Positions 261 to 53,495 are shown, numbered from the stretch's first letter. The stretch: 64,000 nt of DNA from an uncultured Planctomycetota bacterium (GCA_963845755.1 CAWJTV010000044.1:50936-114935), one strand, 5' to 3'. Numbers and translations: made by a program. The notes: generated from the sequence alone by a model not told the origin.

Positions 261-3200
261 TCATGGAGTGACCCGGAACAGGCCCCAGATGGCTTGCGTG
301 TCGCCGTTACCGCTGGTCTGGCCAATGAACGTCCCGTAGAAATAGTCGCCCGGGACCTTGAACGAGCCGCCCGCGCTGTCGAACAGCATGTCTATGGTCT
401 GTCCGGGGAGGATGAAGCGGCCGCCCATCCATTCCGACAGGGGGTTGAATCCCAGCTCCCTCGAGTCGTTCACATACGGCTCTTCCTGGAAGACGTGGCC
501 GTGGACCACGGGGACCTGGCTGCTCCCGCCGGCATCGCCGCCTGCCCCGACCGGGTAGATCCAGCGGAACCGCACGGGCGTCCCGGCCTTGACCGTGAAG
601 ACCGGCGTCTGCGGGTCGGCATAAGCCAGCGGTTGGTTCGGTAGCTGCGGGCTGACAAGTCCGTTGGACAGCCGAGAAGCGGTACTCGCCGGTGCGGCGG
701 GTGGATAGCCGCTGGTGGGGTAACGGTACTGGATCGGCTCGTTGCGATAATTGAGGGCCGGGTAGTTCGTACCCTTGTTTTTGTTATTGACATACGTGAA
801 GGCATCGGTCTGCATCACGAGGGCGAGTTCACGGAACTCCTTGCCGTCGGCCTTCGTAACGGTCGCCGTGGCGCGGGTCCTCATCAGGTGGTTTTCGATC
901 TTCGTGACCGTTCCTTTGGTATCATAGACATACTGATACTCGGGAACGAGATCCAGTTCGTGATGTCGCTTCGGCCATTTCGAGCCGAGCGGCTCGACGA
1001 CCAGCGCACCGATGAGACCCTTGCGGTGCTGGATCAGGGGATCGGCGGGAGCCAGGTTGACCGAGCCGAGTTCGACGGGTGTCTGTATCAGCGTGTCATC
1101 CTGGTCGAAGGAGAGAGAACCTGCGTACCAGTACATGGTCCGGACGCCGGCCGGGTCGGCGGTCGCCTTCGGGTTGTAACCCACGTTCATCCCGTCGCCA
1201 GAGGTGATGTCGTACTCGACCAGTTGGGGATGCAAGCCGACGGATTTCGACGTGTTCAATGTCAGGGGTGTCGTATTGCTGGATAGCGCCAGGCGGGCGA
1301 ATGGGTTCCCGGCAGCGAACTGACCGATGCCGGCAGCCGTTCCAAACGTCTGGTCACCCGGGTTGAACTGATTGATCAGGTTGATCTTGATCCAGTCACC
1401 GGCATTGGCCCGCAGGATTAGGGGTTCGACATGCATGTCTCCCCTGAGCTTGCCGTCGGGACCGAGGTCGTCGCCGTTCACGTAGATCAAGGCGTATGGG
1501 TTTTCGAGTTTCGTGGTTGACGCACTTGCAGACTGGAAGGGGAAATTGTGGCTCGCCTGTCCGCGTGAGTTGTAGTACAGCGTTCCGGCGGGCAGTACCT
1601 GCGCGACCGTCGATGCCACGATCGTGTATTCCTGCTTCTGGTCGGCGGGCGCAGCCGCGTAGAGTTTTTCGAAGTCGAGCGTATGGGGTGCCTTGCCCGC
1701 CTCATTGTTGGGAAGCGGCTTCAAGTAGGTGCGCGAGCGGGGATCCGAAGGCCCTCGCTTCGGCCGGTACCTGTGACCGAGATTGTACGCGGCCCCATCG
1801 TAGGCACGCAGGATTCCCCAGGCGCCGCTGGTCTGACCCTGGGCGTTCCCCGACGGCTCGTAGAGGTAATCGGCGAAATAGCGATGCTGAGTCTCCGTCT
1901 TGGCCGGGATGGTGAAATCCATCTCGAAGTGTTCCGAGAGCGAGATCGCCTGCGTGTTCTGGAAGCCGGAGTTGGTGTAGGACGGCTCGAAGTAATACTT
2001 CACACCGTGGATCGTGAAGCTATGCTCGTCCATGTGGGCACCCGCGAGCGCCCGCACCTGCACGCGGTCGTTGGCGTAGGCTCGCAGCATGGGCGTGTAA
2101 GGATCCCGTCCGGTCACGCCCCCCTCGTTCGGATCGGCCGAGAGCGGGACCAGCGGCGCCGAGAAGGATCGCGGGCTGCCAATGATACCTGTAAAGACGT
2201 AAAGGTCACTCGGGATCGGGGCGCCGAATTCTTTGATCACGTAGATCGTCAAGACCTTGCCCGGCACCTCGATGGTCCACTCGTGCAAGACCGGGTTGAA
2301 CGCGAGCTTGGCCGAATTCGGCAGCAGTACGCCCGCGTCCTCGAACGCTTTGACGATCTCCGGTGGGACGTTGCCACCCGGAGGGACCAGGTACTTCTTG
2401 AGCGCCGGATCCATCGCAAAAAAGGCCGGCTGAAGGTCGAGGTCGCCGTCACCCCGCTCGATCGATGCATAGGCGTAGGCCAGGTCGGTTGATTCGGGCT
2501 TCCCGGGGACAGGAATCGCCACGCGCAACGGCAACGGCTCGTTGCGATAGCCCACCGAGTAGGTTCCGATCGTCCCGAAGCTGATCAACTGCGGCGTCAG
2601 CGGTGTCGGCGTGTTCGGGCCGACGCCGGGCGCGTTGACCGTGTTGGGCGGGTCCGCCCAGCCCGGTGCCATGTCTGGGGTGTAAAGTCCGAAATTGACA
2701 TCGAGCGGGTAGCGCTCGGTGATGATCGGGTTTCCGGCAGCATCTTTCGCCCTGACATCATTGATCTGGAACAGAAATGGCGACGTACCCGCCACGAGCG
2801 TGGCACCCGTTTCGGAAAGGTCGATACCGAAGGCCAGGAATTGAGAGCGAACGGGATCGGTCGGGCTATTCGGGATCACGTCGCCTGGCTTCAGTGTCGT
2901 GGTAATCTCGTTCTTGGCCGATGCGTTCAACGTGAAGAGCGGCCCGGCGGTCACGATTGTCGAGACAAGGAATACGGGATCGATCGAATAAGCAACGACC
3001 GACGCCGGCCCTCCCGGGTCATTGATTCGGAACCCGATACCCGTGGGCGGGGTGACCAGGACGGCTTCGTTAGAGAGCGTGATGCTGTTCGTCTTGAAGT
3101 CGGCGCGGATGGGATCGCTCGCTGCGGGTGGTATCTTGTCTCCGACATTGAGGGCCTTGAGTTCGGCTTGAGCCGCCGAGTTGAGCGTGAACGACTTCGT

Positions 3201-6200
3201 GGCGGTGAACTGGAGTTGAGAAGGCGTTCGCAAGACCGACGTGCTGACACCAAGATAAGCAAGCTGCATGTCCTGGAATTCGATCGCGAACTCGCGGTAG
3301 CTCTGGGCGCGGTCGGCCGTGATAATGTTCGCCTGCCAGCTCGTCGGGCCACCGTCATGCCGCTGTCCGCCTTGCTCGTATACCACGGTCGGCTTGTTCA
3401 AGGCGTTGGGCGTGACGACGGGGATCTCCCACTTCGAGTCGTCGGGTTCGACCAGGAGCGCCGCATAGTAGCCCGCTTGCTGGTGCGTCGAGGGGCTAAA
3501 GTGATCGTGCGTGAACACCGAGCGAACCGTTCGGTCCAGCCCGTCGTTGTTCAGCGTCGGGTCGGTGTCGAAGCGCTGGATGGTCGTCTGGGCGCCGTCC
3601 CAATTCTGGAAGGCTGGGGGCTGGCCGAAGAGACTCCCCTTCGAGGGCGTCTTGGGATCGAGGGGGTAACTTTCGTTGACGGGGATGACCTTCAGTTGCC
3701 GCTGCGTCGTCCCCTTGTACTGGGTGGTCTCGTCGAATTTGTAGATCCCGCCCTTGGCGTTGACGGCCGCGATGCGCTCGCGGACCTCTTGCGGGCTGAA
3801 CGTGCCATCTTCGTAATTGAAGCCGTTACCGGCGCCGTCGGACGAGGTGACATCGAACTTCACGAGATGGATGTGCTGGCCCAGAACATCGGTCGGTGTG
3901 CGCACCTGGAAATCGTCCATCTCGTAGTAATTCGGCACCAGGTTGGTGTGCCAGTATTCGATCGTGTCGTCGGTATTCGATCGGAAGAAGAAGGGTTGCG
4001 GCGCCCTGACGCCCGTCACGGTCGGCGCCACGTCATCCCAGAGGGTGAGGAGCCGCTGCTGGGGGAAGTGCCACCCTTTCTTGTTGAGCACCACGTCGAG
4101 CTGGAGGACGGCCGCCTTGTATCGGCGGACGTTGACATTCGATTCGCCGTCGCCGCGGACACCGGGAGGGGCATAAGGCGCACCGGGGACGGCGGGCAGG
4201 CCGTTCAGGATGAAATTGCCCGGATCGCCGTTGGGTAAGTAGGACCTGCGGGAACGTGTGGAGTGGGTCCTCATGGCCGCCTTCTCGATAGCCGTCCCAT
4301 CCTGCGGCAGCTCGAAGGCGACCAGACCGCCGGCTTTCGCCTTGTAGTCGGGAGCGGGGCCGACATCCACGAAGTCTTTCGAGAAGTCCCGCGCCGTGAA
4401 GAGATTGCGAACGAGATCACCGTCGAGGACCTGGTGTCGCGGGAGTCCACCGTCCAGGTAGACCTTCTGGCCGGTCGTCGCGTCGTAGATGGGATTGCCG
4501 CGTGCATCCTCTTTCCAGGCGTAATCGAGTGGCGGATGCGGTGGGCGATGTCCGGCGACGGCGGGGATGAAGAACGGGTAGCCCGGATTCTCGAAGTCGG
4601 CGCCGGGCTTATCAACCTCGACCCGCCGGCCATCGTCGATCAGACGGACTCGTGCGGGTGTGGAGGCCATGGCGAGCGAGGGCATCGGCACGATCGCCGG
4701 TATGGGAGTGCCCGTCACAATCTCGCCATCTGGCTGGGCACGGTTCCAGGCGGGCTTGACGTCCGTGTCGCTCACCGATTGGCGTGTACCCCCATTGTCA
4801 AAATAGTAATACTGGATCATCCCGCTCTTGTCCTCGCGGTAGACCACATAATCCTTCCCGCCCTGGCTGGTAATCAGGGTCACGGGACGTCCGTCCTTGT
4901 CAAGCCTCGTGCCAGACTCGAATGCGTCGTGCACGCGCCAGAGTGACCACATCCCCTCGGCGAAGTGAGGGTAGAAATGGCAGTGGAAGATCGAATCGCC
5001 CACAGTATAGTTGAGGTTGCCGCTACCGCCGTGGGTGATCTCCATCGTGTAGCCGGAGCCGGCGACGACGGTCTGGCTATCCAGGTATTGGCCGTTGTCG
5101 CTATTCGGTGTGTGCAACCACTGGTGCGCATGCTGGTGGTGAACGTGGGTTATCCCCTCGCTGGCGTTGAGCACTCGGAACTTCACATGATCTCGCATGT
5201 AGCTGTGATAGACGTTGGATGGGTCGTCGGGGTAATAGGCCTTGGTAGCACCCTCGCCTGGTTTCTTGGGGGCCACGAGGGTTCCAGGCTTCGGGATCAC
5301 CGCCACTCCCGGTTTCGTCGGCGGGGTAGGAGGTTCACCGTCGGGGTTTGTAAGCGCCTGATTATTCGCATTGGCCGGTACATCGACGACCATGGCCGGA
5401 TCACCGCAAGACCATGAACTGAGGAAAAACTCCTCGAATTTCAGGTCGACCGCGTCCTTCCTTCCCATCGGCCCTACGCCCAATCGATTGGAAAGGATCT
5501 CGGCGCCGATCCCGGCGCAACCGTAGTTGATTCCGAAGAAGTCACCGCCGGCATTGGCGTAGGTATTCAACTGCGGGAATGCCTGGACGGTCGAGAAGTT
5601 ATAATGGTAGACGATCGTGAATTCGCGATACGGCTGCCTTCGGTCGGGCGACGAGGGATTCTCGTGGAATAGCGGGCCGTTGATCGAGTAAGGCCAACGG
5701 TCATGGTTGGGCCCGGTGATGATCGCCGTTAGATCACTATCGACCAGACTAAAATCCTTCTGATTGGGAGCGTGATCGGGGTCGGGCGGGTTCTTGAGCA
5801 TGCTGAGCACAGGGGTACCGTCCGGGATGAGCTGCCCGCTCGGGTATTTGGCACCGGGTGGGTAAAGTGCCAGGTAGTTGACCAGATGCTGCAATTGGTG
5901 AGGGACCGATTCCAGGTTGACGAGGTGCAATCGCCTCCAGGTGGACGGGTCGCCTGCCCGATGGATGAGGACCACGGAGGTGGTCTTGAACGTGCGCTTC
6001 TGGATCTGATCGGGAGGTGCCGGTACCACAGTCGTCAGGGTGTAGACCTCGTAGGAAACACCGCGGATCACCACAGTGACCGGGTCGGCTTTAGAGTCGA
6101 GCTTGACCTGCAACTGCATATTCGTTCGCTTGCTCGGAGGCGATTCCAGCAGGTAAACCCCCGGCTGCTCCGGCAGATAGATCACGTATTCATGGGATTG

Positions 6201-7232
6201 TTTGATCCTTTCGGCCACGCTGAGCGTCGCGACGGCGCGCCTTTTTTGCTGCAAGCCTCGTTCCTGACTGTCCTCCACGTAATAGGTCGCCTGGTCCAGG
6301 TCCTCGCGGGTCACCTGGCTCCGGTAATACTCGGCCCCTTCGGGCTGGACATTGACCACGCCGAAGAGCCCTGACTGGAGCTGACTTGTGTCGTTCGGTA
6401 GCGGCGCGTCATCCGAAAAGCTGTGGACCAGGTACGTCCCCTCGGCCTTGGCGTAATACCGGTAAACCTTCGTTGCTCCTGGGGCACAGACACTCCCGGG
6501 CTCACCACCCGGCTCCTTGGATGGGTTACTCGAGCCGTTTTTTTGCGTCTCGGTCGGTTTCGCTGGCGGGTTCGTGCCGACCCAGGACGAGTCGTTATCG
6601 ATACCGCCCTCCTTGAGAAGCTCGAGTCCCATCGGATGGAAACCCGCATAGCGAGTCAGGGACGCCGTGCTGACCGGGAGCTTCGGATTCAGCAAGTTGG
6701 TGAAAGTCACCTCCAACTCGTCGCCCTCGTTGACTCGCAAGACCAGGGGGCGCGGACGCTTGTCTTCCCGCAGCCGAACCTTGCCCGGCTCCAGCGTTGC
6801 GAACTCGAAAGCCGTTGGATGCTTCGGGTCGTAATCGGTCGGGACCACATCCCGCGCCAGGGCGTAGATCATCGCATTGGGCTGCGATGCACCGAGGCGA
6901 TTCCACATGTAAGGCTGATCCAGCGCGACGACGTGGGCCTTGACGGTCCGCCGGCGTGCGCGTGCTGCCTTCTGTCGTTGATAGGCTCGGGAGAAACGAT
7001 ACAAACTCGAGCCACCCTGGGAACCCTGGGTTGCACGAGCCGGCGGGGCCGGGGTCTCATCGGCGGTATCGGCGGTGTCCGACGGCGGAGCGTCTGAGGA
7101 GGCCGGGGCCGTGCCACCGGCCACCTGGGCGAGTACGGTCCTCTCGATCGTTGCGGAGGCTCCCCAGAATAAGAGGGCCAATCCCGCGAATTGGCCGACC
7201 ACTCGGACGACAAAACGACTTGAGATCGACAT
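261..7232 (-). CDS. Very large secreted multicopper oxidase (MnxG-like)
   Basis: ORF 261..7274; likely ATG at 7232 after GGAG; N-terminal signal-like segment; copper motifs THVHHQHAHQW, FHCHFYPHFAEGMW (type-1 Cu), GQHIHLVKFD, FTHDHFSPSTHQQAG, EHSFTIHG, VVHGH. Confidence 0.88.
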   Translation of the reverse strand: MSISSRFVVRVVGQFAGLALLFWGASATIERTVLAQVAGGTAPASSDAPPSDTADTADETPAPPARATQGSQGGSSLYRFSRAYQRQKAARARRRTVKAHVVALDQPYMWNRLGASQPNAMIYALARDVVPTDYDPKHPTAFEFATLEPGKVRLREDKRPRPLVLRVNEGDELEVTFTNLLNPKLPVSTASLTRYAGFHPMGLELLKEGGIDNDSSWVGTNPPAKPTETQKNGSSNPSKEPGGEPGSVCAPGATKVYRYYAKAEGTYLVHSFSDDAPLPNDTSQLQSGLFGVVNVQPEGAEYYRSQVTREDLDQATYYVEDSQERGLQQKRRAVATLSVAERIKQSHEYVIYLPEQPGVYLLESPPSKRTNMQLQVKLDSKADPVTVVIRGVSYEVYTLTTVVPAPPDQIQKRTFKTTSVVLIHRAGDPSTWRRLHLVNLESVPHQLQHLVNYLALYPPGAKYPSGQLIPDGTPVLSMLKNPPDPDHAPNQKDFSLVDSDLTAIITGPNHDRWPYSINGPLFHENPSSPDRRQPYREFTIVYHYNFSTVQAFPQLNTYANAGGDFFGINYGCAGIGAEILSNRLGVGPMGRKDAVDLKFEEFFLSSWSCGDPAMVVDVPANANNQALTNPDGEPPTPPTKPGVAVIPKPGTLVAPKKPGEGATKAYYPDDPSNVYHSYMRDHVKFRVLNASEGITHVHHQHAHQWLHTPNSDNGQYLDSQTVVAGSGYTMEITHGGSGNLNYTVGDSIFHCHFYPHFAEGMWSLWRVHDAFESGTRLDKDGRPVTLITSQGGKDYVVYREDKSGMIQYYYFDNGGTRQSVSDTDVKPAWNRAQPDGEIVTGTPIPAIVPMPSLAMASTPARVRLIDDGRRVEVDKPGADFENPGYPFFIPAVAGHRPPHPPLDYAWKEDARGNPIYDATTGQKVYLDGGLPRHQVLDGDLVRNLFTARDFSKDFVDVGPAPDYKAKAGGLVAFELPQDGTAIEKAAMRTHSTRSRRSYLPNGDPGNFILNGLPAVPGAPYAPPGVRGDGESNVNVRRYKAAVLQLDVVLNKKGWHFPQQRLLTLWDDVAPTVTGVRAPQPFFFRSNTDDTIEYWHTNLVPNYYEMDDFQVRTPTDVLGQHIHLVKFDVTSSDGAGNGFNYEDGTFSPQEVRERIAAVNAKGGIYKFDETTQYKGTTQRQLKVIPVNESYPLDPKTPSKGSLFGQPPAFQNWDGAQTTIQRFDTDPTLNNDGLDRTVRSVFTHDHFSPSTHQQAGYYAALLVEPDDSKWEIPVVTPNALNKPTVVYEQGGQRHDGGPTSWQANIITADRAQSYREFAIEFQDMQLAYLGVSTSVLRTPSQLQFTATKSFTLNSAAQAELKALNVGDKIPPAASDPIRADFKTNSITLSNEAVLVTPPTGIGFRINDPGGPASVVAYSIDPVFLVSTIVTAGPLFTLNASAKNEITTTLKPGDVIPNSPTDPVRSQFLAFGIDLSETGATLVAGTSPFLFQINDVRAKDAAGNPIITERYPLDVNFGLYTPDMAPGWADPPNTVNAPGVGPNTPTPLTPQLISFGTIGTYSVGYRNEPLPLRVAIPVPGKPESTDLAYAYASIERGDGDLDLQPAFFAMDPALKKYLVPPGGNVPPEIVKAFEDAGVLLPNSAKLAFNPVLHEWTIEVPGKVLTIYVIKEFGAPIPSDLYVFTGIIGSPRSFSAPLVPLSADPNEGGVTGRDPYTPMLRAYANDRVQVRALAGAHMDEHSFTIHGVKYYFEPSYTNSGFQNTQAISLSEHFEMDFTIPAKTETQHRYFADYLYEPSGNAQGQTSGAWGILRAYDGAAYNLGHRYRPKRGPSDPRSRTYLKPLPNNEAGKAPHTLDFEKLYAAAPADQKQEYTIVASTVAQVLPAGTLYYNSRGQASHNFPFQSASASTTKLENPYALIYVNGDDLGPDGKLRGDMHVEPLILRANAGDWIKINLINQFNPGDQTFGTAAGIGQFAAGNPFARLALSSNTTPLTLNTSKSVGLHPQLVEYDITSGDGMNVGYNPKATADPAGVRTMYWYAGSLSFDQDDTLIQTPVELGSVNLAPADPLIQHRKGLIGALVVEPLGSKWPKRHHELDLVPEYQYVYDTKGTVTKIENHLMRTRATATVTKADGKEFRELALVMQTDAFTYVNNKNKGTNYPALNYRNEPIQYRYPTSGYPPAAPASTASRLSNGLVSPQLPNQPLAYADPQTPVFTVKAGTPVRFRWIYPVGAGGDAGGSSQVPVVHGHVFQEEPYVNDSRELGFNPLSEWMGGRFILPGQTIDMLFDSAGGSFKVPGDYFYGTFIGQTSGNGDTQAIWGLFRVTP

Positions 7233-7953
7233 CGGTCTTGCTCCATTGACCAGCCGATGAATCGAAAACGACACGCAGCCCAGAGTGTTACCGTCAACGC
7301 CGATTCATCTGCGCAGACTCATCTACTTCGACGGGAGCGCCACGACTCCCGAACACCATTTTCACGCCTCAAGGAGACGCGACGCCTCTCCCCTCGAAGT
7401 CGTCGCCCACCCTGTGATCAGTTCGATGAAACCGAAGTACGCGGTTCGCGCAACCCCACTTGATTCCGAGTGGCGCGTCTGATCGATTTGTTTGATGGTC
7501 CACACATGAACCGATTGACCTCGAGATGAGGGTTCGAAACGTGGATTCCATCGACACCTTAGATAGTCGTACCGGGTCCCGTCTACGTTGTCTAGAAAAA
7601 AATCAGATTTGGCCAAGAAAAAGATTTCGGCAGACTGGCGACTGGATTATAGTCGTTTATCAAATCCTCGCTGCCTGCGCCCGAAACATTGTGTGAAGGT
7701 TTCGGGTGCCGGCAGGCTGCGGCCGTTGGTTGCAGTTCTCAACAGCCCGTCATGACGGCTCGGGGGATAGGTCACCACGAAGACCGGTCGCCTCTCACAT
7801 CGTCGTGGGGAGCGGCCTCCATCTCCCGGCTTCGCACGGCACCATGGATCTCCCGACGCGACCCGATGAAGTGCCCGGATCGAGTCATCAGGCTTGAGCC
7901 GATCGAGGGGAACCGGCCAGGGGACTTTCGTTCGTAGGAAGGAATCGACTGCG

Positions 7954-9750: not shown

Positions 9751-10677
9751 ATGAACGGTAACCTCGCCTTCATCGCCTGCGTGGAGCGCGGGAGGCTCGA
9801 AGACCAGACGATCCTCCTCTGCCGGTCGATCCGCAGGTTCGGCGGTGTGTATCGCGACGCCCCGATCTACCTATTTCAGCCGCGCCCCGGGATGGACGTT
9901 AGCGAGCGGACGTTGGCGGTGCTGTGCGAGCTCGGGGCCGTCCACATCTCCGAACCGCTCAACCTCGACTTCTCCGACGAGGGGACGCTGAACAAGATCT
10001 TCGTCTGTGCCTATGCGGAGCGGGTCCTTGACGAGTCGACGCTCGTCTTCCTCGACAGCGACACCGTCGTCATCGGAGAGCCCGCAGACCTGGCCCTTCC
10101 GCCGGGAATCGACATCGCCATTCGTCCCGCACACTCGACCAGGCTAAATAGCCGTGGCCCCACCGACCCGATCGATGCCTACTGGCAGCGGGTGTTCCAG
10201 GATCGCGCGCTCCGCGATGTGCCATTTGTCGAAACGGAGCTGGGGCGGCGCGTAAGGGCCTACTTCAGTGCGGGCCTGATCGCGGTCCGCCGCGAGGCAG
10301 GTGTCTTCCGCGAGTGGGAGGACGATTTCCGGAGCCTGGTGAGCGGCGGGATTATTCCCGACGGCGCTCTCCCTCGGATGGATGAGATCGCGCTGGTTGC
10401 CACAGTCGTGCGCCGTTACGCGCGAGCACGGCTCCTGGACAAACGGTACAACTACCTGATCTACCGGCGGCCGATCATGATCCCGCCCATACGCCTCCTC
10501 TCCTTGAACCAGATCATACACATCCACTACCGACACGCGTTCTACAAGCCGGGTTTCTTGCGGTGCGTCCAGCCCCCCTTCGATGTGACCTGCCCGATCC
10601 TCCGGTGGCTGGATCAGTTCCTGCCGATGGAGCCGACGTTCGAGGGGGCCGTAGACGTGACCGAAGTCCTCGGATAA
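9751..10677 (+). CDS. GT-A fold (GT8-like) glycosyltransferase-like protein
   Basis: SIRRFGG..., NK, VFLDSDT (DxD), YFSAGL, DEIAL, YNY and HIHY motifs typical of GT8-like proteins. Confidence 0.65.
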   Translation: MNGNLAFIACVERGRLEDQTILLCRSIRRFGGVYRDAPIYLFQPRPGMDVSERTLAVLCELGAVHISEPLNLDFSDEGTLNKIFVCAYAERVLDESTLVFLDSDTVVIGEPADLALPPGIDIAIRPAHSTRLNSRGPTDPIDAYWQRVFQDRALRDVPFVETELGRRVRAYFSAGLIAVRREAGVFREWEDDFRSLVSGGIIPDGALPRMDEIALVATVVRRYARARLLDKRYNYLIYRRPIMIPPIRLLSLNQIIHIHYRHAFYKPGFLRCVQPPFDVTCPILRWLDQFLPMEPTFEGAVDVTEVLG

Positions 10678-43780: not shown

Positions 43781-44449
43781 CTAAATCAGCGGCCGATTCT
43801 CCAGCCCGCCGGAATCCTTCACACCGAGGTTCTCGTAGATCTGGCGCGTCGCGTCGGAGCGATTGAGGGTGTAGAAGTGGAGCCCGCGGACCTGGTGGTC
43901 GAGCAGGTCCCGGCACTGTTCGGTGGCCCAGTGGATGCCGACCTTGCTGACGGCCTCGGGCGAGTCGGCACAACGGCCGAGCGCGCGGAGCAATCGGGCC
44001 GGGAACCGGGCGCCGAGCGCCAGCTCGGCCATCCGGGCGAGGTTCTCCCGCGAGGTGATCGGCATGATTCCCGCAAGGATCGGCACTCGGATGCCGGCCA
44101 GGTCGCACCGTTCGCGGAAGTCGTAGAAGTCCGCGTTACTGAAGAAGAGTTGCGTGCAGATGTAATCGGCGCCGGCGTCCACTTTCCGCTTGAGATAGTC
44201 CAGCTCCTTGAGCCGATTCGGAGTCGTCGGATGTCCCTCGGGAAAGCCGGCGACCCCGATCTCGAACCCGCGCGCGTCGGGGACCCGCTCGTCGCGCGAA
44301 CGGATAAACCGGACCAGTTCCTCGGCGTACTGAAATGCGTCCTGGGATCGATCGTGGTTCGCCATCGTCCGGGGCGGATCGCCGCCCAAGGGCAGGATGT
44401 TCTCGATCTGCGATTCCGCGTAACGGTCGAGGATCGTCGCGAGTTCTTC
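43781..44449 (-). pseudogene. metF: 5'-truncated second copy of metF
   Basis: Near-identical to 52590..53240; lacks about the first 85 codons; stop codon upstream in frame. Confidence 0.9.
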
Positions 44450-44663
44450 GTGGCCAGCGATCTGCGGACGCGCTCATCGGTCTCACCGGTCTGGCGGTTG
44501 AGCCAATGTTCCCTCGAAAAAAAATCGATGGAGCATTGATCCGCGATTTGTCGCTTGATAGACTCTGAGGCGTAATCAGACATGTCGCGCACCGTCTGCC
44601 CCGAGGGTTCCGGCGATGGTCGAGCGTGATTTCACATCATCTACACTACCGACGGCTAAGGTG

Positions 44664-44740
44664 CGCAGCCCGCAGCCCGCAGCCCGCAGCCCGCAGCCCG
44701 CAGCCCGCAGCCCGCAGCCCGCAGCCCGCAGCCCGCAGCC
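44664..44740 (+). repeat. Perfect heptamer tandem repeat (CGCAGCC)x11
   Basis: Counted directly, 77 bp. Confidence 0.95.
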
Positions 44741-45001
44741 ACTTCTCTACCCCATTTCGACGCCTCGTCCAGATTGAAGCGGACGGCGAGCACGAGAGCA
44801 AGGTGGACCCGGGACGGATCGAGGAATTCAACTTCTTCCCGTATCGGCTTCGAACGAGCCTGCGGCATCCGCCTCATTGTGTTGACCCTATACTGTGCGG
44901 ACGAACACGTCAAACGGCAACGTCGTCCCAACAATCCGTCGGTGTTCAAGCATAATCCCCGTATTCCAATGCGACCCGGAGATGGGAGTCCAATCTTAAA
45001 A

Positions 45002-45064
45002 GCTGTTTCAAAAGGGGGGACAGGCACCTCGAAGACTCGGAGCCAGTCCCCGTTTTGAAACAGC
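45002..45064. repeat. REP-like palindrome
   Basis: GCTGTTTCAAAA-GGGGGGACAGGCACC...GGAGCCAGTCCCC-G-TTTTGAAACAGC. Confidence 0.75.
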
Positions 45065-45083
45065 CTGTTAGTGAGGATCCGCC

Positions 45084-46080
45084 ATGAAGACCCATGCCCA
45101 TCAGCATCTGTCGTCTAGAGGTGGTTATTCAATCACTTACAGGCCGCGTGGATTCACGCTATTGGAGTTACTAGTCGTCGTTGGCATCATCGGTTTGTTG
45201 GTTTCGATCATCCTGCCCGCAGTCATGTCTGCACGGGATGCGGCGAGGAAGCTCTCATGCGCAAGCAACCTACGCCAGATTGGTGAGGGACTTCAGAACT
45301 TCGAAATCCTCGAACGGATACCTCCCCGGGGTTTATTGGGGGGTGGTCGAAGAGGATGGAGGGGCGTACCTCTCTAGGTGGTCCTTCTCACCGTCAAGTC
45401 TGATCGCTGGGTTCATCGACAGCACCGCACTCGCTAACTCGGTACAAACCCAGATGCCTCCAGGTGATAACGACCCTACCTGGACGAGCCTGGGGCTTCC
45501 CGCCCCTGGAATCCTTCATTGCCCGGCAGACGCATTTGCGTCCGGCATGGACACCAGTTATCACTATTGTCGAGGCAACATACCGCTTTGGCCCGCGGAC
45601 CCTGGAGGAGCGTTCGTACGTCATAAAGGTATACGCCTTGCGGAGATTCAGGATGGCCTCGCGAATACCGCATTCGCATCGGAGCGCCTCATCAGTCGGC
45701 CACAGTCACACAGTCCGGATCGGAGCCGCGATTACATCGCGGTTGACTCGGAGGTGAGCAACCAAGTTGCACCCGACTGTATCGGTGCCAATACGACTGG
45801 GTCGTGGGGTTGGTCTCTCCAACCCTCAGGGACCTCTTGGCTCAGTGGCCGCTGGCTCGATGCCTCATACTATCACCTCTTTCCGCCAAACTCGTTGTGG
45901 GTCGATTGCGTGGAGCGTGATCCATCTTACATGGCGGTGACCACAGCAAGGAGCTACCATCCTGGAGGAGTCAATCTTTTGTTCGGCGATGGGCATGTGA
46001 AGTTTATTAGCAACGGCGTCGGTCTGCAAGTCTGGCGAGCATGGGCAACTCGCAGCGGATCGGAAATCCAGGGGGACTGA
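45084..46080 (+). CDS. DUF1559 prepilin-type protein (frameshift near 45305)
   Basis: [31 protein letters not shown]...C..NLRQIG; I.DGLANT...[18 protein letters not shown] (H-X9-DG). Confidence 0.92.
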
Positions 46081-46084
46081 TGGA

Positions 46085-47327
46085 ATGCGCTTTCAACTTC
46101 GGGTATTGATCTGGTTTCTCCTTGCATTCGTCCTCACTCCAAGCTCGATCCAATCCGAGATGATTGGTAAGGCTCAACTGGAGCAGATTCGACTTTCGGT
46201 CGAGTCATACATGTCTCGTATTCAGAGCATTCACATGGACTACATTGTGGACTGGGAGCCCGATCGTGACTCACCGCGACTACCGCAGGTCGGTCTCCGC
46301 CAAGATTAAGATGTTGGAAGAGGACCTGAAGAGGGAGACCGAACCGGCAAAGCGCGATCTGATCGTCAAGGCGATCGAAAGTCACAAGTCATCCGGGACA
46401 GCTTATTCCTACAGTCTATCGTACGCTTTTCCGTCGATGCGATATGATCGTATGGCCTTGGAGCAGGCAGGTGGTGAGGTCGGGCCCTCGAGTCGAGAGA
46501 TCCGGGCCGTCGATGATCGGCGTTTTACCGGGATCGACTTCCAAAGAAAGCTCGCTGTCAGTGTCTCCCAAGTCTCAGAAAACGAGCTCAGGTTCTTCGT
46601 ACGGTTACCAACGGCTTCGATTGGAATGAAATCTTACCCCGTTGAGGGCCCGGACGACCAGTGTTTAGAATCACTCCTTTCACACCCGGGGATGACTACC
46701 ATTGAAGGACACGAGCAGATCGGGAACACAGCCACCATCATCCTGAAAGTGGGCCCAGGGATTCCAGGGGCAAATCGGCCCACAGGTCTCGGCGACGACG
46801 GCTATGTCAAGCTGTGGCTGGCGCCGTCTCATAACTATCTTGCGATCAGGAAAGAGTATCAAGTCATCCTACCGGTGCCAACGAAGATGGAAAGGAGTGA
46901 GGGCGTCTACACGATCGCACTGGCTGACTTTCGTTCGGTCCCGGACAAGGCAAGACGGAACTCGAGCATGCAACTCCCTTTCTTGATCACCTACAGGGAT
47001 CCCGTGGGAACGACGATCTCCAAGGTGGCTTCGGTTGCGATCAACGGCACCCTCGCCCCTCATGAGTTCGATCCGCCGATTCCCCCGGAATTCGTTGTGT
47101 CCGTTAACAAGGGGATCGGGAGAAAGCTAGCCGGTGGCAGGACGGCCATGTCTCGGGTTGTTGGCGACACGGTGAAAAGGGCTCGTGCTATCCTGGCATC
47201 GTCGCCACCGGAAGCACCAAACACCTACTCACCTATTCCTTACCTTGGAATCGCGGGGGTTCTCGTTTGTACGGTCGGTCTCGCAATTCTTTACCTCTTG
47301 AAAAGGAGAGTTGGACATGCGCGCTAA
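46085..47327 (+). CDS. Exported protein with signal peptide and C-terminal TM anchor (frameshift near 46290)
   Basis: Joins 46085..46309 and 46164..47327; beta-rich body (VKLWLAPSHNYLAIR), C-terminal TM plus KRR. Confidence 0.7.
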
Positions 47328-47739
47328 CTACGTTCCGTTGGCGGCCCTTGGAGGGTGGCTCGTGGTTACCCTGTTTATACGTACGCCTGCTGTCCCTATC
47401 ACCACTTTCTCGAGTGCTCAACTGCGAGGCGGCGATGGGACGTGCTTTTGGCCCCAGAACCCGACCGAATGCAACGGCTGTCGACCGCTCGGAAGCACGG
47501 AATCCTATCAATGCGATAGCCTTGCCTTCGGTGCGGATTGTGAGGCGTATTCCGGGTCCTCCTGCATCGCGTGTACAAACACGGGCTGGGATAGCTGTGG
47601 CGCTGGTTACACCGATTGGAGCCAACCCGGGTGCACGGGGATGCCTACGCACTACGCTGGTCAATGCGGTCCTCTGTACCATGTTTACTCGTCGAGTGAA
47701 TATGGAGGTTCGTGTGATCAAAATGCCTGTAACCCATAA
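47317..47739 (+). CDS. Secreted Cys-rich peptide with a double-glycine-like leader
   Basis: AGGAG RBS; hydrophobic N-terminus, FSSAQLRGG, then a 101-aa core with 12 Cys. Confidence 0.75.
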   Translation: MRANYVPLAALGGWLVVTLFIRTPAVPITTFSSAQLRGGDGTCFWPQNPTECNGCRPLGSTESYQCDSLAFGADCEAYSGSSCIACTNTGWDSCGAGYTDWSQPGCTGMPTHYAGQCGPLYHVYSSSEYGGSCDQNACNP

Positions 47740-47909
47740 TCGTGCCGATGTCTTCAGGGTCGTCCGCGCACCCCGGCCTGCGACTGGGCAGGCCGGAGCC
47801 GGATTCGTCCGGCGCTCATCGGCCGAGTTTGGGAGTCGAGCTCTTCGATAGGGTTGCCTGTGTGATGTAATCATGCTAACTGATCATCGGTATAAATAGG
47901 TGTAACTGT

Positions 47910-48599
47910 ATGTATGCTGATTTCGATGCGTGGAGAGGGGGACTTTACCGCTGCGGGAAGAGCGAGGAGAGCTTGTTTCGACGACTAGCAAAGCATCTTA
48001 TAATCATCTTAATTGTTAGTCCATGTCTACAATCCACTGCGATCTCGCAAGAGGATGTTAATTTATCTGATAACATGTGTGGGCCTAACAGCCTTTCTTT
48101 GATCTTGGCTTATCTAAGCGGTGATTTGAGCAAGGATTTCATGGAACTCGGCCCGGACCCGGGAAAACATCCATTCTCATTGGCGGAATTGGAAGACTTG
48201 GCGAGACAACCTGGTTACAGGACTCTATTATTGCACTGGGAAGCCAAAGAGGCGGCATCCTTCGATTGTCCGGCACTCCTGCACGTGCGAAGTGCCCGGG
48301 CAGGTGGGACGCCGGACCATTTCATCGCGTGCTTCGGATCAATTAATAAGGGGATTTGCATCGCAGACTTCCCCCGGTCGCCTCGCGTCCTGCCGTATGA
48401 GGACCTGTATCGTATCTGGGATGGTGACGTTCTTTACGTCGATCGTCGTGATAGTTGGGCATTAGACCGGTTAAGGTTTGACGCTTATGGATATCGGGAT
48501 GGCGTCCGCATTTCATTGTTGGTGGTCTTCGGCGCCGCCAGTCTGTACGTTGTTGCCAGACGGGCCTCGAAGTCCTCGAGGTCCTCGAAAACCGCTTGA
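47910..48599 (+). CDS. Stand-alone C39-like cysteine peptidase, membrane-anchored
   Basis: NMCGPNSL (Cys), FSLAELEDLA, PALLHV...DHFIA (His), IADFP (Asp), WDG; hydrophobic segments at both ends. Confidence 0.8.
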   Translation: MYADFDAWRGGLYRCGKSEESLFRRLAKHLIIILIVSPCLQSTAISQEDVNLSDNMCGPNSLSLILAYLSGDLSKDFMELGPDPGKHPFSLAELEDLARQPGYRTLLLHWEAKEAASFDCPALLHVRSARAGGTPDHFIACFGSINKGICIADFPRSPRVLPYEDLYRIWDGDVLYVDRRDSWALDRLRFDAYGYRDGVRISLLVVFGAASLYVVARRASKSSRSSKTA

Positions 48600-49093
48600 T
48601 AATCGTAGTCCCAAGAACGGACCCCTGAGAGCGCCAACCAACACTCCTCCGGAAGAGATCACGTGGGAGCGTTTCTGAGGATGGGAAGATATGCGGGATC
48701 TTCAAACTTCAACGCGATCGCGATCGAGCGACCGGATTTTCTGGGTCGTCGCTTTGGTAGCCATTCCTGCCTCGCTGCTCATCCCGTTTGTTCTTATGCG
48801 AGGGCATCGCAAGGCACCTGACGGTTTGTTTGCCAGGGAGTCCGTGGTCCGGGTTAAGGCGATGGGTCCGGAGGAACGACGAGGAAGGGCTGAGTTCCAT
48901 CTGGTCAACCAGAGTAAGACACCCATAACCATCCGGTCAGCAAAGCCGTCTTGTAACTGTGTCGAAGTACCTTCCGGTGAGCCGCCCGTCATTCCGCCCG
49001 GAGGGCATGGAGTCCTCGCGTTCTTGGTCAACTTCCCGGACGCGGGAACGAGCTCGGCGAGGATTGAAGTTTTCCACGATGGGGCATTAAGCC

Positions 49094-50583
49094 CAATACC
49101 GTTGAAATAGGCGCAAGCCACAGCCTCCTGTTACTTTGGGTTTACTCACGACCCAAGCAACACGGAGGCCATGACTCGCATGCCGCACGGACATTGCACG
49201 CTGCCGCCCGATGCGTCGGGCCGGATCTTGGATCGCTTGGCGGGACTGGAACAGATTATCTCGCCCGAGGCCGTTCGCCAAGTCCTCGCGGCCACCGGTA
49301 AAACCAATCAACGACGTTGCACACTGACCCACGAGATTGTTTGCTGGGTGGTCCTGGCCATGGGGCTGTTGACCGACTTGCCGATCCGCCAAGTCTTCAA
49401 GCATGCACGCCGGCTCCGAGTCGGCGAGGAGAGTCCCCATCGATCCAGCCTGTGTGTGGCCCGGCAACGCCTGGGCATCGCGCCGGTCCGCCACCTGTTC
49501 GAGCACGTCGTTCATCCTCTGGCCCGGCCCGATACGCCCGGAGCCTTCTACCGCGGGTTCCGCCTGGTCGGCATCGATGGGACCGTCTACGATGTCCCCG
49601 ACTCGGAGGCCAACGCCGTGGCCTTCGCGCGCCCCTCGGCCGGGCCGCGCGGCGACGGCGCGTTCCCCCAAGTCCGCAAGCTGAGCCTGGTCGAATTGGG
49701 GACCCACATCGAACTGGCCTTCGTGGTCCGGTCGATCGCCCACGGCGAACCGTCGATGGTCGGCGGCTTGCTCCGCCATCTGACTCCGGAGATGCTCCTG
49801 TTGGAGGATCGCGGGTTTTTCAGCTATGACCACTGGAAAACGGCGATGTTGCGGGGCGTCCAGCTGTTGGCACGCGTGAAAAGCGGCTTGATCCTCAAGT
49901 CGATCCAAAACCTGGCGGATGGCTCGTACCTGGCCAAGATTTATCGGGGTTGCTACGACCGTCAGATCGATCGGGATGGGATCGTCGTCCGGGTGATCCG
50001 CTATACACTGGACGACCCGCAACGAGTCGGACACGGTGAAACTCATGTGCTGATCACGAATCTCCTTGACGCGGAGCTTTATCCTGCTGAAGAATTGATT
50101 ATTCTTTATCACGAGAGATGGGAACAGGAGTTGGTCTATGATGAGCAAAAGACCCATCATGATCCGCGGCGGGCGACCAAGCCGGCACAGATGCGAAGCG
50201 AGACCCCGGCGGGGGTGATCCAGGAGATCTATGCGCTGTCGCTGGGTCATTTCGTGATCCGAGCCTTGATGGTTGCGGCCGCCGGGACCGTGGGGCTGGA
50301 CCCGGATCGGCTGTCGTTTCTGGGGTGCTTCCAGATCCTCAAGTGCCGGTTGCCAGAATGCAACAGCTCGACCCCCGAGGCGTTCGAGGAGTGGTACCAG
50401 GGATTATTGTGGGAGATGCAGGGGGAGCGCACCGATGACGAAATGCGGAGGAACCGGATCAATCCGCGAGTGATCAAGCGTAAAATGTCCAAGTGGAAAA
50501 AGAAACGATCCAAACATCGACACATTCCGCCCTTGAAGAAAACCTTTGCAGAGACAGTGGTTATGCTTCCTTAAACGGTATTG
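49094..50583 (+). mobile_element. IS4-family insertion sequence (1490 bp)
   Basis: IRs CAATACCGTT/AACGGTATTG; 10-bp target duplication GCATTAAGCC at 49084..49093 and 50584..50593. Confidence 0.95.
49171..50574 (+). CDS. IS4-family DDE transposase
   Basis: IDGT, DRGF, YHERWEQELVYDEQK (YREK-like). Confidence 0.95.
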   Translation: MTRMPHGHCTLPPDASGRILDRLAGLEQIISPEAVRQVLAATGKTNQRRCTLTHEIVCWVVLAMGLLTDLPIRQVFKHARRLRVGEESPHRSSLCVARQRLGIAPVRHLFEHVVHPLARPDTPGAFYRGFRLVGIDGTVYDVPDSEANAVAFARPSAGPRGDGAFPQVRKLSLVELGTHIELAFVVRSIAHGEPSMVGGLLRHLTPEMLLLEDRGFFSYDHWKTAMLRGVQLLARVKSGLILKSIQNLADGSYLAKIYRGCYDRQIDRDGIVVRVIRYTLDDPQRVGHGETHVLITNLLDAELYPAEELIILYHERWEQELVYDEQKTHHDPRRATKPAQMRSETPAGVIQEIYALSLGHFVIRALMVAAAGTVGLDPDRLSFLGCFQILKCRLPECNSSTPEAFEEWYQGLLWEMQGERTDDEMRRNRINPRVIKRKMSKWKKKRSKHRHIPPLKKTFAETVVMLP

Positions 50584-50888
50584 GCATTAAGCCCCCTCGT
50601 CCTAATCGTCGAAGTGGCTGGGGCCGGGACTATCCCGGGGATTCGTCGGATTCGAAATGCCTCTCAATCATTCCCCGCGTTGACCTCAACCACTGAGGAA
50701 TCGGAGATTACTATCGAAACGAGGGAAGCCGCCGGCTCGGTACCCTGGTTGACTGGCCTCGATTGCGACCTAGGTGAGGCGAAGATTGGTCTCGCTAGGA
50801 TTGACGAGGAAAGGTCCGGATCGGATTGTGTGGATCGCGTATATATCTATCGCATCGGTTGGAGGGAGCTTCCCAAGACTGCTTTGTT

Positions 50889-52119
50889 GGTGGTGTCCTA
50901 CGCAATTTGAACAGATGGCATTGTGATCCACTCACGCATCGTCCAGACGTGGTCGGCCAGGCCGGCAGCCATCGCCGGTGACCCCTTTCGCACCCGGCCA
51001 TCGTCGTCCCGATATTCCAACGTCCTCACAGGCCAGCAGAAGTTATCGCTGTACATCGTAAAATAGGTCATCGACTCGTGCACCCGCCAATCCTTCGAGA
51101 ACGTGTACGTCTTCCGCACCTTCCGGGCGTTCTTGTGCCGGTCGGTCGCGTTGTACCGCTCCAGGAACGAGACGTTGACCTGTCGGCTCAGCTTCGAGAG
51201 CCGCAACGCCTTGGCCAGCGCCGCCAGCGTGCCGAAGATCAGATGGACCAGGATCTCCACCACCCGACCCCGCCGCCGCCGCTTCTCGACCGTGGCGTAG
51301 GTCAGCTCCGGCGGCGGTACCTTCTCAGGCACCATCCGCTTGCTGTCGCGGCCCGTCGGCGTCGCGGTGACCTCGCTCCCGTAGATGCGCAGGATCGCCT
51401 CCTTGTACGCCGGGTAGTCGTCGCTGGTCATCAGCCTCACGGGGTGGTCTCCTGTCCGCTGCTTGGCCGCGGCGACCACGGCCTCGACCTCCTCGGCCCC
51501 ACGCGCCCCGGGGACGACGCAAAGGACCAGCTTGTGCTCGGGATCGTAGGCGGTGTGGTCCCACCAATCCCCATGCTGGTCATCAGCCGGATTGCCCGGG
51601 TCGCAGTGCTCCTGCTTCTTGAACACGAACGACCACTTCTCGTCGAACTGGACCTCTTCCGTCCGAGGGGGAAAAAGCCACGAGCTCGTCGTGGAGTTGC
51701 CGGGCGTGCTCGCCCAGGACTCGGCGGTAACGTACCACCGTGTCGCGGTGCACACCGAGGAGTCGAGCGGTGGCCCGCACCCCGGTGCGATCGGCGAGAT
51801 GTTCGATCAGCGAGATGGTCGTCTCCCGGGGCAAGCTGGAGCGGTACAGCGGCGTACCCTTGCGCTCGGAGAAACGGGCCTTGCAAGTGCGACAGTAGAG
51901 CTGGCGGATGGGCTGGCCCTGGCCGTAGGTGCCGCAGACCGACAGGTTGCCGAGCCCACGCAGGCCGTAATCGGGGCAATCCGCACGCTGGCAGCAGAAG
52001 CCGGAAAGATCCTCCATGGCAGTGCCTCCATGATCCTGGGACCAGAGCAAATGGGGTCATGTCGAGGAACCCATGATACACGAAGAACTTACTGCGTTCA
52101 AATTCCATAGGACACCACC
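50889..52119 (-). mobile_element. IS1-family-like insertion sequence (1231 bp)
   Basis: IRs GGTGGTGTCCTA..AATTTGAAC / GTTCAAATT..TAGGACACCACC; 8-bp target duplication GCTTTGTT at 50881..50888 and 52120..52127. Confidence 0.93.
50898..52017 (-). CDS. IS1-like transposase in two frames (Zn-finger/HTH plus DDE), likely programmed frameshift
   Basis: CQRADC...CRTC, HTH; VQFDEKWSFV, TSDDY, LERYN; frame change at TTTTTCCCCC near 51670. Confidence 0.85.
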
Positions 52120-52574
52120 GCTTTGTTTAGCGGACAGATATGGATCAATCGACGGGACCCATCAATTCCTCGAATCAAAATCGGTCATCTCAGCGGGGCC
52201 CTCGGGTCTCAAGGCCTGATATCGCCCACGGTCATCCGGATCCACCCTCGTGAGCGTTCCGAAGAGACGGTCCTGTTCAAGGCAAATACCGGGACATGGG
52301 AGCTTGATCCCAAAACAACCTTGCCCATATGGTTGACAGCAAGATGGGAATCAACCGACGGAAATCAGCGACTCGTACTCCTCGCAGCAGAGCGCAGCGA
52401 GCCTTTGGATCATCCCGGCGTATTCACGGTCTCATTTGTCAGCGATCGTGGAAAGAAAGCTCAACTGAAGATCCTCTCTGACATTTCTTATGTCCCCAAT
52501 GCTGCAGCGCTAACTCGGCCTTGAGGCGAAGGCCATTATCTGCGGCCGAACGGACTCCATCAACTCGACCGGGG

Positions 52575-53495
52575 CTACGTGATCGGACGATACTCCAGAC
52601 CGCCGGAATCCTTCACGCCGAGATTCTCGTAGATCTGGCGCGTCGCGTCGGAACGATTGAGTGTGTAGAAGTGGATCCCGCGGACCTGGTGGTCGAGCAG
52701 GTCCCGGCACTGTTCGGTGGCCCAGTGGATGCCGACCTTGCTGACGGCCTCGGGCGAGTCGGCACAACGGCCGAGTGCGCGGAGCAATCGGGCCGGGAAC
52801 CGGGCGCCGAGCGCCAGCTCGGCCATCCGGGCGAGGTTCTCCCGCGAGGTGATCGGCATGATTCCCGCAAGGATCGGCACTCGGATGCCGGCCAGGTCGC
52901 ACCGTTCGCGGAAGTCGTAGAAGTCCGCGTTACTGAAGAAGAGTTGCGTGCAGATGTAATCGGCGCCGGCGTCCACTTTCCGCTTGAGATAGTCCAGCTC
53001 CTTGAGCCGATTCGGAGTCGTCGGATGCCCCTCGGGAAAGCCGGCGACCCCGATCCCGAACCCGCGCGCGTCGGGGACCCGCTCGCGCGAATGAATGAAC
53101 CGGACCAACTGCTCCGCGAACTGGAACGCGTCTTCGGCGCGGTCGTGGTTCGCCAGCATCTTGGGCGGATCGCCGCCCAGGGCGAGGATGTTCTCGATCC
53201 GCGATTCCGCGTAACGATCGAGGATCGCCGCCAGCTCTTCCGCGCTGTGGCAGACACACGTCAAGTGGGAGACCGCGGTCAGGTTGGTTTCCCGCTGGAT
53301 CCGGACGATCAGGTCATGGGTGCGTTCTCGCGTCGAACCCCCGGCGCCGTAGGTCACCGACACAAAGGAGGGCTGGAGCGCTTGCAGATGCGCGATCGTC
53401 TCGAATAGTTCGTCCGAGGCCTTATCGGTCTTGGGGGGGAAGAATTCGAAACTGAACGTGGTGGGCCGTGCCCTGAATATGTCTTGAATGTGCAT
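52575..53495 (-). CDS. metF: 5,10-methylenetetrahydrofolate reductase
   Basis: SFEFFPPK, SVTYGAGGS, HLTC, KVDAGA...TQLFF, HFYTLN. Confidence 0.96.
   Translation of the reverse strand: MHIQDIFRARPTTFSFEFFPPKTDKASDELFETIAHLQALQPSFVSVTYGAGGSTRERTHDLIVRIQRETNLTAVSHLTCVCHSAEELAAILDRYAESRIENILALGGDPPKMLANHDRAEDAFQFAEQLVRFIHSRERVPDARGFGIGVAGFPEGHPTTPNRLKELDYLKRKVDAGADYICTQLFFSNADFYDFRERCDLAGIRVPILAGIMPITSRENLARMAELALGARFPARLLRALGRCADSPEAVSKVGIHWATEQCRDLLDHQVRGIHFYTLNRSDATRQIYENLGVKDSGGLEYRPIT

Follow-up and report, generated by a model that had tools for sequence, protein, structure and literature searches.

The double-glycine leaders handled by peptidase-containing ATP-binding cassette (ABC) transporters (PCATs) follow the consensus LSxxELxxIxGG, and in C39 peptidase domains of the PCAT type the oxyanion-hole glutamine lies a few positions before the catalytic cysteine. 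Processing at double glycines has hitherto been regarded as taking place in the cytoplasm, in association with ABC exporters. The only periplasmic C39 peptidase found in the literature searched is FapD of the Pseudomonas functional amyloid (Fap) system, presented in PMC5557850 as exported by the general secretory (Sec) pathway and dependent on its catalytic cysteine, with a substrate that is not known. The locus described here lies in a window of 64,000 nucleotides from an uncultured Planctomycetota bacterium (GCA_963845755.1 CAWJTV010000044.1:50936-114935; positions are counted from its first letter), where five plus-strand genes encode, in order, a DUF1559 pseudopilin-like protein, an unnamed protein (gene2), a small Cys-rich protein, a stand-alone C39-type cysteine peptidase and a DUF1573 protein. 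Sequence comparison makes it reasonably likely that these genes form a conserved envelope cassette, in which an exported 12-Cys protein is cut after Gly-Gly (LRGG|DGTC) by a C39 peptidase facing the periplasm.

The open reading frame (ORF) of the putative precursor (47317..47739, plus strand, 140 aa) encodes a 39-aa leader (47317..47433), consisting of Met-Arg, about 18 hydrophobic residues and the linker FSSAQLRGG, which ends in L-R-G-G (Gly-Gly codons at 47428-47433), and a 101-aa core (47434..47739, including the stop codon) that is acidic, with one Arg and no Lys, and contains 12 Cys. From its start codon, the ORF shares 11 nt with the end of gene2, as also happens at two other loci (L018 and L034), and the conservation of this overlap in three loci suggests coupled synthesis. 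A phmmer search of 1.84 billion representative sequences returned 8 matches to the precursor at E<=1e-3, of which five are full-length (138-147 aa, 33-60% identity) and one is partial; P0004, a giant, repetitive immunoglobulin (Ig)-like protein with a Cys pattern, is uninformative, and P0007 has no Pfam match. All 12 Cys are retained in the full-length relatives, and in an alignment of 13 rows (phmmer relatives and syntenic ORFs) five Cys columns are invariant, while six more, and Gly38, are at least 90% conserved. Judged by this conservation, the precursor is a real, conserved protein family. Its profile matched 5 of 121 family genomes; a locus search with the close precursor alignment found no metagenome locus, and a word-indexed homologue search found nothing for the precursor and one relative only for the C39 protein. 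For the core, neither Pfam nor NCBIfam gave a match; VIA-align against 48,161 chains reached a best Z of 3.2, a PDB profile search gave noise (E ~0.09), and the best Atlas feature score was 0.77, with no fold or family match. The AlphaFold2 (AF2) model of the core is beta-rich, with a mean predicted local distance difference test score (pLDDT) of 64.5.

The Gly-Gly pair is conserved beyond the window. Ten of the 11 close relatives that have an N-terminus carry G-G at the aligned position, and the other (L020) has G-S. Of 20 precursors, 19 carry a hydrophobic-x-G-[GAS] motif in the stretch from residue 21 to the first core Cys, compared with 5.0 of 20 in composition-preserving shuffles; the observed count overstates independence, because the 20 precursors are mutually related. 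Distant precursors are unalignable with the window protein, yet in them, too, the motif precedes the first core Cys by 3-11 residues. The classic leader spacing (positions -12, -8, -7, -4, -2 and -1) is found in precursors at L022 (LHRTELENLRGG), L057 (ATELAAIQGG) and L063 (LSLDQLQAVTGG and LSFEQLHAITGG), all of which also carry a hydrophobic N-terminus, and one of the L063 precursors has a sub-threshold NCBIfam match, exactly over the leader stretch, to a GG-leader family of ribosomally synthesized and post-translationally modified peptides. The window's own L-R-G-G has the core elements of a double-glycine site (Gly at -2, Gly, Ala or Ser at -1, and a hydrophobic residue at -4). Whereas classical leaders present the full consensus within 15-30 aa at the extreme N-terminus and have no Sec signal, the window leader is 39 aa long and has a hydrophobic start; in all of the precursors, the GG motif sits behind a hydrophobic, signal-like segment that classical leaders do not have.

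The peptidase gene (47910..48599, plus strand) encodes 229 aa, of which residues 54-181 match Pfam Peptidase_C39 (PF03412) with 33.7 bits (cut-off 22; 34.8 bits in the whole-genome family search). The C39 domain stands alone between two hydrophobic segments (residues 30-46 and 199-215), and no ABC-transporter domain is present. A profile built from five cassette C39 proteins matches structures of the ComA peptidase domain (3k8u/5xe8, E 4e-4), and Cys57, His137 and Asp153 of the window protein align with its DCG, H and D positions, which we take to be the catalytic residues of ComA. Among 22 related C39 domains, the Cys is present in 21 (the alignment gave no coverage at that point of the other one) and the His in all 22, while the third position is occupied by D (16 domains), E (5) or N (1).

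By hydropathy, the peptidase consists of a hydrophobic N-terminal segment preceded by a basic stretch, the C39 domain, a C-terminal transmembrane (TM) segment and a K/R-rich tail (five K+R, no D+E), so that a FapD-like export signal is predicted on a stand-alone C39 protein. In each of the proteins compared, a hydrophobic segment comes before the C39 domain and a TM segment after it; of the 10 proteins tabulated, 7 have a K/R-rich tail or loop behind this TM segment, with only 0-1 acidic residues. In natural fusions of the peptidase with its neighbours, a prepilin-type or second TM segment leads onward into DUF1559 or DUF1573; in the DUF1559 fusions the basic loop ends in a prepilin-type site, after which the pilin helix begins. 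From hydropathy and charge, the C39 domain is predicted to face the periplasm, and in the DUF1559 fusions only the periplasmic side gives a consistent topology. The original prediction, made from the window sequence, was of periplasmic maturation, which, still as a prediction, fits both the hydropathy and charge pattern and the architectures of the fusions; its premise that C39 domains are normally cytoplasmic parts of ABC exporters stands with the published exception of periplasmic FapD (as described in PMC5557850).

All five parts of the cassette are found again in further planctomycete genomes and in metagenome contigs; they occur in two different orders, and C39 is in some cases fused to DUF1559 or to DUF1573. 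The complete order DUF1559-gene2-Cys-rich ORF-C39-DUF1573 is found at L018 (genome G015), at L019 and L020 (two copies in G041) and at L054 (G474), and the same order, as far as the contig extends, at L034, L036, L037, L038 and L039 (L036 starts inside the C39 gene; L033 and L035 duplicate the sequence of L018). Every C39 gene of the close subfamily that has upstream DNA (9 of 9) is preceded by a Cys-rich ORF. A distant version (L022, G009) has the order DUF1573, DUF1559, Cys-rich ORF, gene2-like gene, C39, and is followed (L022 7977-10996) by genes for an ABC ATPase, an ABC-2-type permease and a further membrane protein. Conversely, four gene2+DUF1559 pairs that lack a C39 gene (two at L029, and L030 and L031) have no small Cys-rich ORF; thus, the precursor travels with the protease.

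A search of 61 related genomes with the window C39 protein gave 17 matching places in 14 of them (E<=1e-3); the 16 places outside the window, in 60 relatives, were all scanned, with Cys-rich ORFs called by a crude filter. A signal-bearing Cys-rich ORF is located directly upstream, or with a gene2-like gene between, at eight of the 16 (L018, L019, L020, L022, L056, L057, L061 and L063) and 1.2-1.9 kb upstream at three more (L021, L059 and L066), while one place has no upstream DNA (L058). Fusions of C39 with DUF1559 are encoded at L057 (Pfam PF03412 at 29-160, N_methyl at 227-250 and PF07596 at 255-528) and L058, and fusions of C39 with DUF1573 at L056, L062 and L063. In the two DUF1559 fusions (L057 7971-9611; L058 7036-8622), a whole C39 protein takes the place of the short leader of the pseudopilin, and prepilin peptidase would be expected to part the two halves at the cytoplasmic face. 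At L064, a 56-aa ORF (10422-10592) about 1.8 kb from the C39 gene has a signal-like N-terminus and LSGKDLSHVRGS, after which only five residues remain; the ORF is perhaps a remnant, or else encodes a very short cargo.

The cassette is sporadic in distribution. Its C39 profile matched 8 of 401 genomes in a sample of the phylum (E<=1e-5) and the gene2 profile matched 5 of 401 genomes sampled from the phylum, while a locus search with the close C39 alignment found two genome loci and six metagenome loci. Ten of the 13 non-window loci of the phylum sample, scanned with 1.5-kb flanks, show no clear signal-bearing precursor (the other three are L057, L061 and L063), and at L074 there is a leader-like ORF without a signal segment. 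The original prediction had described the 140-aa ORF with its hydrophobic N-terminus, linker and 12-Cys core, and the stand-alone peptidase with intact Cys/His/Asp, hydrophobic ends and no ABC domains, in the form in which both were found; it was to be given up if the GG were not conserved in syntenic precursors or if the genes did not co-occur, and on both counts the comparisons given above bear it out as far as periplasmic processing at GG is concerned.

The DUF1559 gene (45084..46080, plus strand) has a prepilin-type N-terminus and occupies two reading frames (45084..45377 and 45181..46080), the first matching Pfam N_methyl and DUF1559 positions 2-41 and the second DUF1559 positions 48-264; with the HX9DG C-terminal motif and GspG-like N-terminus recognized by NCBIfam, all features of the DUF1559/HX9DG family (N-methylation motif, DUF1559 domain and H-X9-DG) are present across the two frames. 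A one-base frame break lies near 45303: a tblastn alignment with an intact relative changes frame at 45304/45305, and omission of any single base within 45285-45344 restores one open frame. DUF1559 proteins form the largest paralogue group of Planctopirus limnophila (68 genes, by the count in PMC10632474). The next gene, gene2 (46085..47327, plus strand), for which no Pfam or NCBIfam match was found, is likewise in two frames (46085..46309 and 46164..47327), with a one-base break that changes the frame between 46243 and 46338. A soil-metagenome contig (a single contig of 165 nt, depth 3.7) is identical to 46166-46331 except for one base missing at 46279, and dropping that base from the window yields a single gene2 frame of 413 aa that aligns end to end with an intact relative. 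The product is predicted to be a type-I membrane protein that starts with a signal-like segment, continues in a beta-rich periplasmic part and ends in a TM segment with a basic tail, and its relatives are syntenic in other cassettes. Atlas leads connect it to large Planctomycetota clusters and to LolA/RseB-like neighbours, and a 112-member Planctomycetota cluster that carries PF03412 structurally matches it; the LolA-like idea comes solely from these leads, the AF2 model of gene2 being too poor for use (pLDDT 39.6) and a PDB profile search having given no match.

The frame breaks in DUF1559 and gene2 may be assembly errors, because many other DUF1559 genes of this assembly (at least 155 DUF1559 matches in the genome, many of them as adjacent half-matches) and its PCAT-like gene are also split. 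The latter, the only other C39 match of the genome (L067, G000:C33:353075-356458), is a canonical PCAT-like gene with its peptidase, membrane and ATPase parts in three frames. The assembly may be indel-prone, or the split genes may be many pseudogenes.

The DUF1573 gene is split in three by two insertion sequences (IS), an IS4-family element and an IS1-like element, both with target duplications. Its first piece (48691..49093, plus strand; 32.6 bits to Pfam DUF1573, cut-off 26.1) encodes an N-terminal TM segment and a first Ig-like domain with S-C-N-C, and corresponds by tblastn to residues 8-141 of an intact relative; the second (50583..50888, plus strand, phmmer E 1.7e-19) corresponds to residues 137-234, and the third, the C-terminal part with the stop codon (52120..52524, plus strand, phmmer E 2.6e-15), to residues 233-351. 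The S-C-x-C is kept in 13 of 14 cassette DUF1573 proteins. The gene also has a weak NCBIfam match to OS_HP2, which was found as a selenoprotein family (PMC1976440), and a review table (PMC9312934) lists DUF1573 selenoproteins with U-G-C.

The IS4-family element (49094..50582, plus strand) contains a transposase ORF (49171..50574; Pfam Nterm_IS4 and DDE_Tnp_1), ends in terminal inverted repeats (AATACCGTT/AACGGTATT) and is flanked by a 12-bp target duplication (GGCATTAAGCCC at 49082-49093 and 50583-50594). Soil-metagenome contigs match the window from 49094 onward and have unrelated DNA before that point; the end of the element thus occurs beside other DNA, which indicates that it is multi-copy or shared. 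The IS1-like element (50889..52119, minus strand) contains overlapping transposase ORFs (51583..52050 and 50898..51755; Pfam DDE_Tnp_IS1 and a helix-turn-helix domain), has 24-nt inverted repeats and is flanked by an 8-bp duplication (GCTTTGTT at 50881-50888 and 52120-52127). The two elements inserted within 300 bp of each other in one gene, and about 3 kb of the span 45084..52524 is insertion sequence. The insertions appear recent, because the duplications are intact and the DUF1573 pieces are otherwise open. As the gene is interrupted twice, the cassette is probably not fully working in this genome.

The island that contains the cassette is more AT-rich than its surroundings, as the original prediction had stated: the GC content is 0.53-0.57 over about 44450-52575, versus 0.60-0.67 on both sides, and 0.554 in the cassette itself, versus 0.63 and 0.61 in the flanking 4 kb. 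In all seven cassettes checked (L018, L019, L020, L022, L054, L057 and the window), GC is 4-10 points lower than in the 4-kb flanks, a pattern consistent with repeated horizontal transfer or with a compositional bias common to them. A partial second copy of metF, its 3' two-thirds (43781..44389, minus strand; Pfam MTHFR positions 107-287), forms the left edge of the island and a full metF (52575..53495; MTHFR positions 2-287) the right edge, and the two copies bracket it as direct repeats (96% identity across 300 nt and 83% farther in). In the same-genus genome G001 there is a single metF region, located on a different contig from the counterpart of the window's left flank; neither the stretch 44450-52575 nor the C39 protein found a match in that genome. 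Upstream of the cassette at L018 (G015; 2653-3375 and 4147-4863) there is a partial duplicate of the N-terminus of a neighbouring methyltransferase-like gene, which echoes the metF duplication of the window. An integrative element with its own integrase was considered and dropped, as an ORF and Pfam scan found no integrase ORF between the metF copies. Between the metF fragment and the cassette is a perfect tandem array of about 11 copies of the 7-nt unit CGCAGCC (44664-44740), and a 24-nt inverted repeat (44995-45018/45048-45071, 83% complementary, 29 nt spacing) ends 13 nt before the DUF1559 start codon. A promoter and terminator scan of 44400-49200 gave results no better than shuffles. No RNA run is listed as containing the region; small parts of it are present only in four soil-metagenome DNA runs of one study, whose coverage takes in neither the DUF1559 break nor any bridging of the IS junctions.

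With regard to the gene set, the original prediction of five co-oriented genes holds insofar as the same set recurs elsewhere, and the identities assigned to the DUF1559 protein with its prepilin signal and to the DUF1573 protein agree with the N_methyl, DUF1559, HX9DG and DUF1573 matches; as intact units the five do not hold, since DUF1559 and gene2 are each in two frames and DUF1573 is in three pieces, the frame breaks and both insertions having been overlooked. For the product, it had proposed display or secretion by a pilin-like or type II secretion system (T2SS)-like route, as a bacteriocin, effector or adhesin; of this, the genetic link to DUF1559 alone is shown.

In the proposed mechanism, the precursor would be exported by means of its N-terminal signal, presumably through Sec, and its 12 Cys would form disulfides in the periplasm, where the membrane-anchored C39 peptidase would cut after GG and thereby remove the remaining propeptide or free the protein from its anchor. 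The C-x-C of DUF1573 (U-G-C in the selenoprotein relatives) may aid oxidative folding or disulfide formation, and the DUF1559 pseudopilin and the LolA-like gene2 product may have some role in handling or delivery. The mature acidic, disulfide-rich protein is, at a guess, a secreted or surface-delivered accessory factor of a competition or binding type. A wider idea, tentative and rather doubtful at this stage, is that the periplasm-facing C39 peptidase, the C-x-C redox DUF1573 protein, the membrane-anchored LolA-like protein and a dedicated DUF1559 pseudopilin constitute an undescribed envelope pathway of Planctomycetia that folds, releases and hands on Sec-exported, GG-tagged disulfide-rich proteins.

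Several observations weigh against cleavage of the precursor after GG by the cassette peptidase. The window leader fills the classic hydrophobic positions only partly (L at -4, I at -12, S at -7), the GG of L056 comes with no hydrophobic residue at -4, and in L020 the pair is G-S. Four of the 16 C39 places show no precursor (L060, L062, L064 and L065), and at L055 (G536) there is a precursor with no C39 gene within 16 kb, although this precursor is truncated by a group II intron (an ORF for a group II intron-type reverse transcriptase occupies 6027-7517, where the precursor breaks off). The oxyanion Gln column is kept in only 2 of the 22 related domains (the window protein has Gln47 there), export and topology are deduced only from hydropathy and the positive-inside rule, and the core model is of middling confidence and gives no reading of function. 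The small-residue site that follows the hydrophobic segment could, moreover, let signal peptidase I make the sole cut. Such small residues are present in most leaders (AFA|Q in P0008, TSA|S in L034), and signal peptidase I alone might then mature the precursor, with the GG as a structural or sorting element and with DUF1559, gene2, DUF1573 or an unlinked substrate as the target of the C39 peptidase. The poor conservation of the oxyanion Gln agrees with this, as does the case of FapD, whose target is not known in a system where the Fap proteins are without canonical sites (according to PMC5557850); nevertheless, signal peptidase I as the sole processing enzyme appears improbable in view of the fixed short distance of the GG motif before the first core Cys (19 of 20), the classic spacing in distant members, and the joint presence and joint absence of precursor and C39 in the gene2+DUF1559 loci examined.

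A cytoplasmic C39 peptidase that cuts the precursor before export, the hydrophobic N-termini being anchors of another orientation, would accord with the cytoplasmic location of all characterised PCAT C39 domains (as stated in PMC5557850), but is very unlikely here: the cassette has no ABC exporter, the K/R-rich segments after the post-C39 TM (0-1 acidic residues in 7 of 10 proteins) point the other way, in the C39::DUF1559 fusions both the site for prepilin cleavage and the DUF1559 domain would come to lie on the wrong sides, and the hydrophobic segment of the leader comes before the GG. Whatever the cassette does elsewhere, there is an even chance that the window copy no longer functions and is the decaying remainder of an island acquired by horizontal transfer, given the two IS elements with intact target duplications that split DUF1573, the frame breaks in DUF1559 and gene2, the location in a low-GC island that is bounded by a partial metF duplicate and has no match in same-genus G001, and the group II intron that cuts the cassette of another relative (L055). 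Against such decay, the ORFs of both precursor and C39 are undamaged, a metagenome contig that is otherwise identical does not have the gene2 break, split genes elsewhere in the assembly make the frame breaks possible errors, and the intact duplications mark the IS insertions as recent. Decay of this copy would qualify the proposal of GG cleavage by a periplasm-facing C39 peptidase without excluding it.

As the cassette pairs a C39 peptidase predicted to face the periplasm with a candidate substrate, the question of cleavage is directly testable. Synteny and fusions tie three orphan families to one process, namely DUF1559, DUF1573 and the large unnamed planctomycete family of gene2; the weight of DUF1559 is evident from its at least 155 matches in this genome and from the 68 paralogues, two of them essential, of P. 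limnophila. The small, fast-diverging 12-Cys products may be a new class of secreted planctomycete proteins. If the wider pathway is real, DUF1559, which is the phylum's largest paralogue family, would have its first function, and a periplasmic C39 peptidase would for the first time have a cognate substrate.

Compared with known systems, the window peptidase belongs to the same Pfam family as the C39 domains of PCATs, also termed ABC-transporter maturation and secretion (AMS) proteins (for example ComA), with Cys/His/Asp aligned to the ComA peptidase domain, and the window precursor shares with PCAT double-glycine leaders the G-G and the hydrophobic residue at -4, while distant members have the full classic spacing. 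In PCATs, the C39 domain is cytoplasmic and forms one protein with the ABC membrane and ATPase domains, whereas the window C39 protein has no such domains and the cassette no ABC gene; it is stand-alone, with a signal-like N-terminus and a C-terminal anchor, and is predicted to be periplasmic, and the oxyanion Gln of the PCAT type is not conserved in cassette C39 domains. The leader, unlike those of PCAT substrates, is located behind a hydrophobic export signal and not at the extreme N-terminus, and the cargo is an acidic 12-Cys protein of about 100 aa, with DUF1559, DUF1573 and gene2 as partners, instead of a short peptide. Class II bacteriocins and microcins are short, usually cationic peptides with a dedicated PCAT exporter and an immunity gene; this class was rejected for the window precursor, which has an acidic core of 101 aa in a cassette with no PCAT and no gene callable as an immunity gene.

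The DUF1559 protein of the cassette shares the N-methylation motif and GspG-like N-terminus of T2SS pseudopilins and has the HX9DG motif of the DUF1559/H-X9-DG pseudopilin-like proteins, a family of no known function for which linkage or fusion to C39 was not found in the literature searched. The S-C-x-C of the cassette DUF1573 proteins corresponds to the U-G-C of DUF1573 selenoproteins of the OS_HP2 type (as tabulated in PMC9312934); the DUF1573 family has no established function, and a role as redox helper for a 12-Cys client is what we infer for it here. The cassette as a whole is not described in the titles and abstracts of the literature searched, subscription journals being outside its coverage. 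FapD, set beside the window peptidase by its published description and not by sequence, is likewise a stand-alone C39 protein with an export signal, but it belongs to a fapABCDEF operon with an outer-membrane pore (FapF) and amyloid subunits, whereas Pfam and NCBIfam gave no amyloid-type repeat or pore annotation to the neighbours in the cassette, which does not have the make-up of a fap operon. In contrast to the Fap system, the cassette encodes a GG-bearing candidate substrate next to its C39 peptidase.

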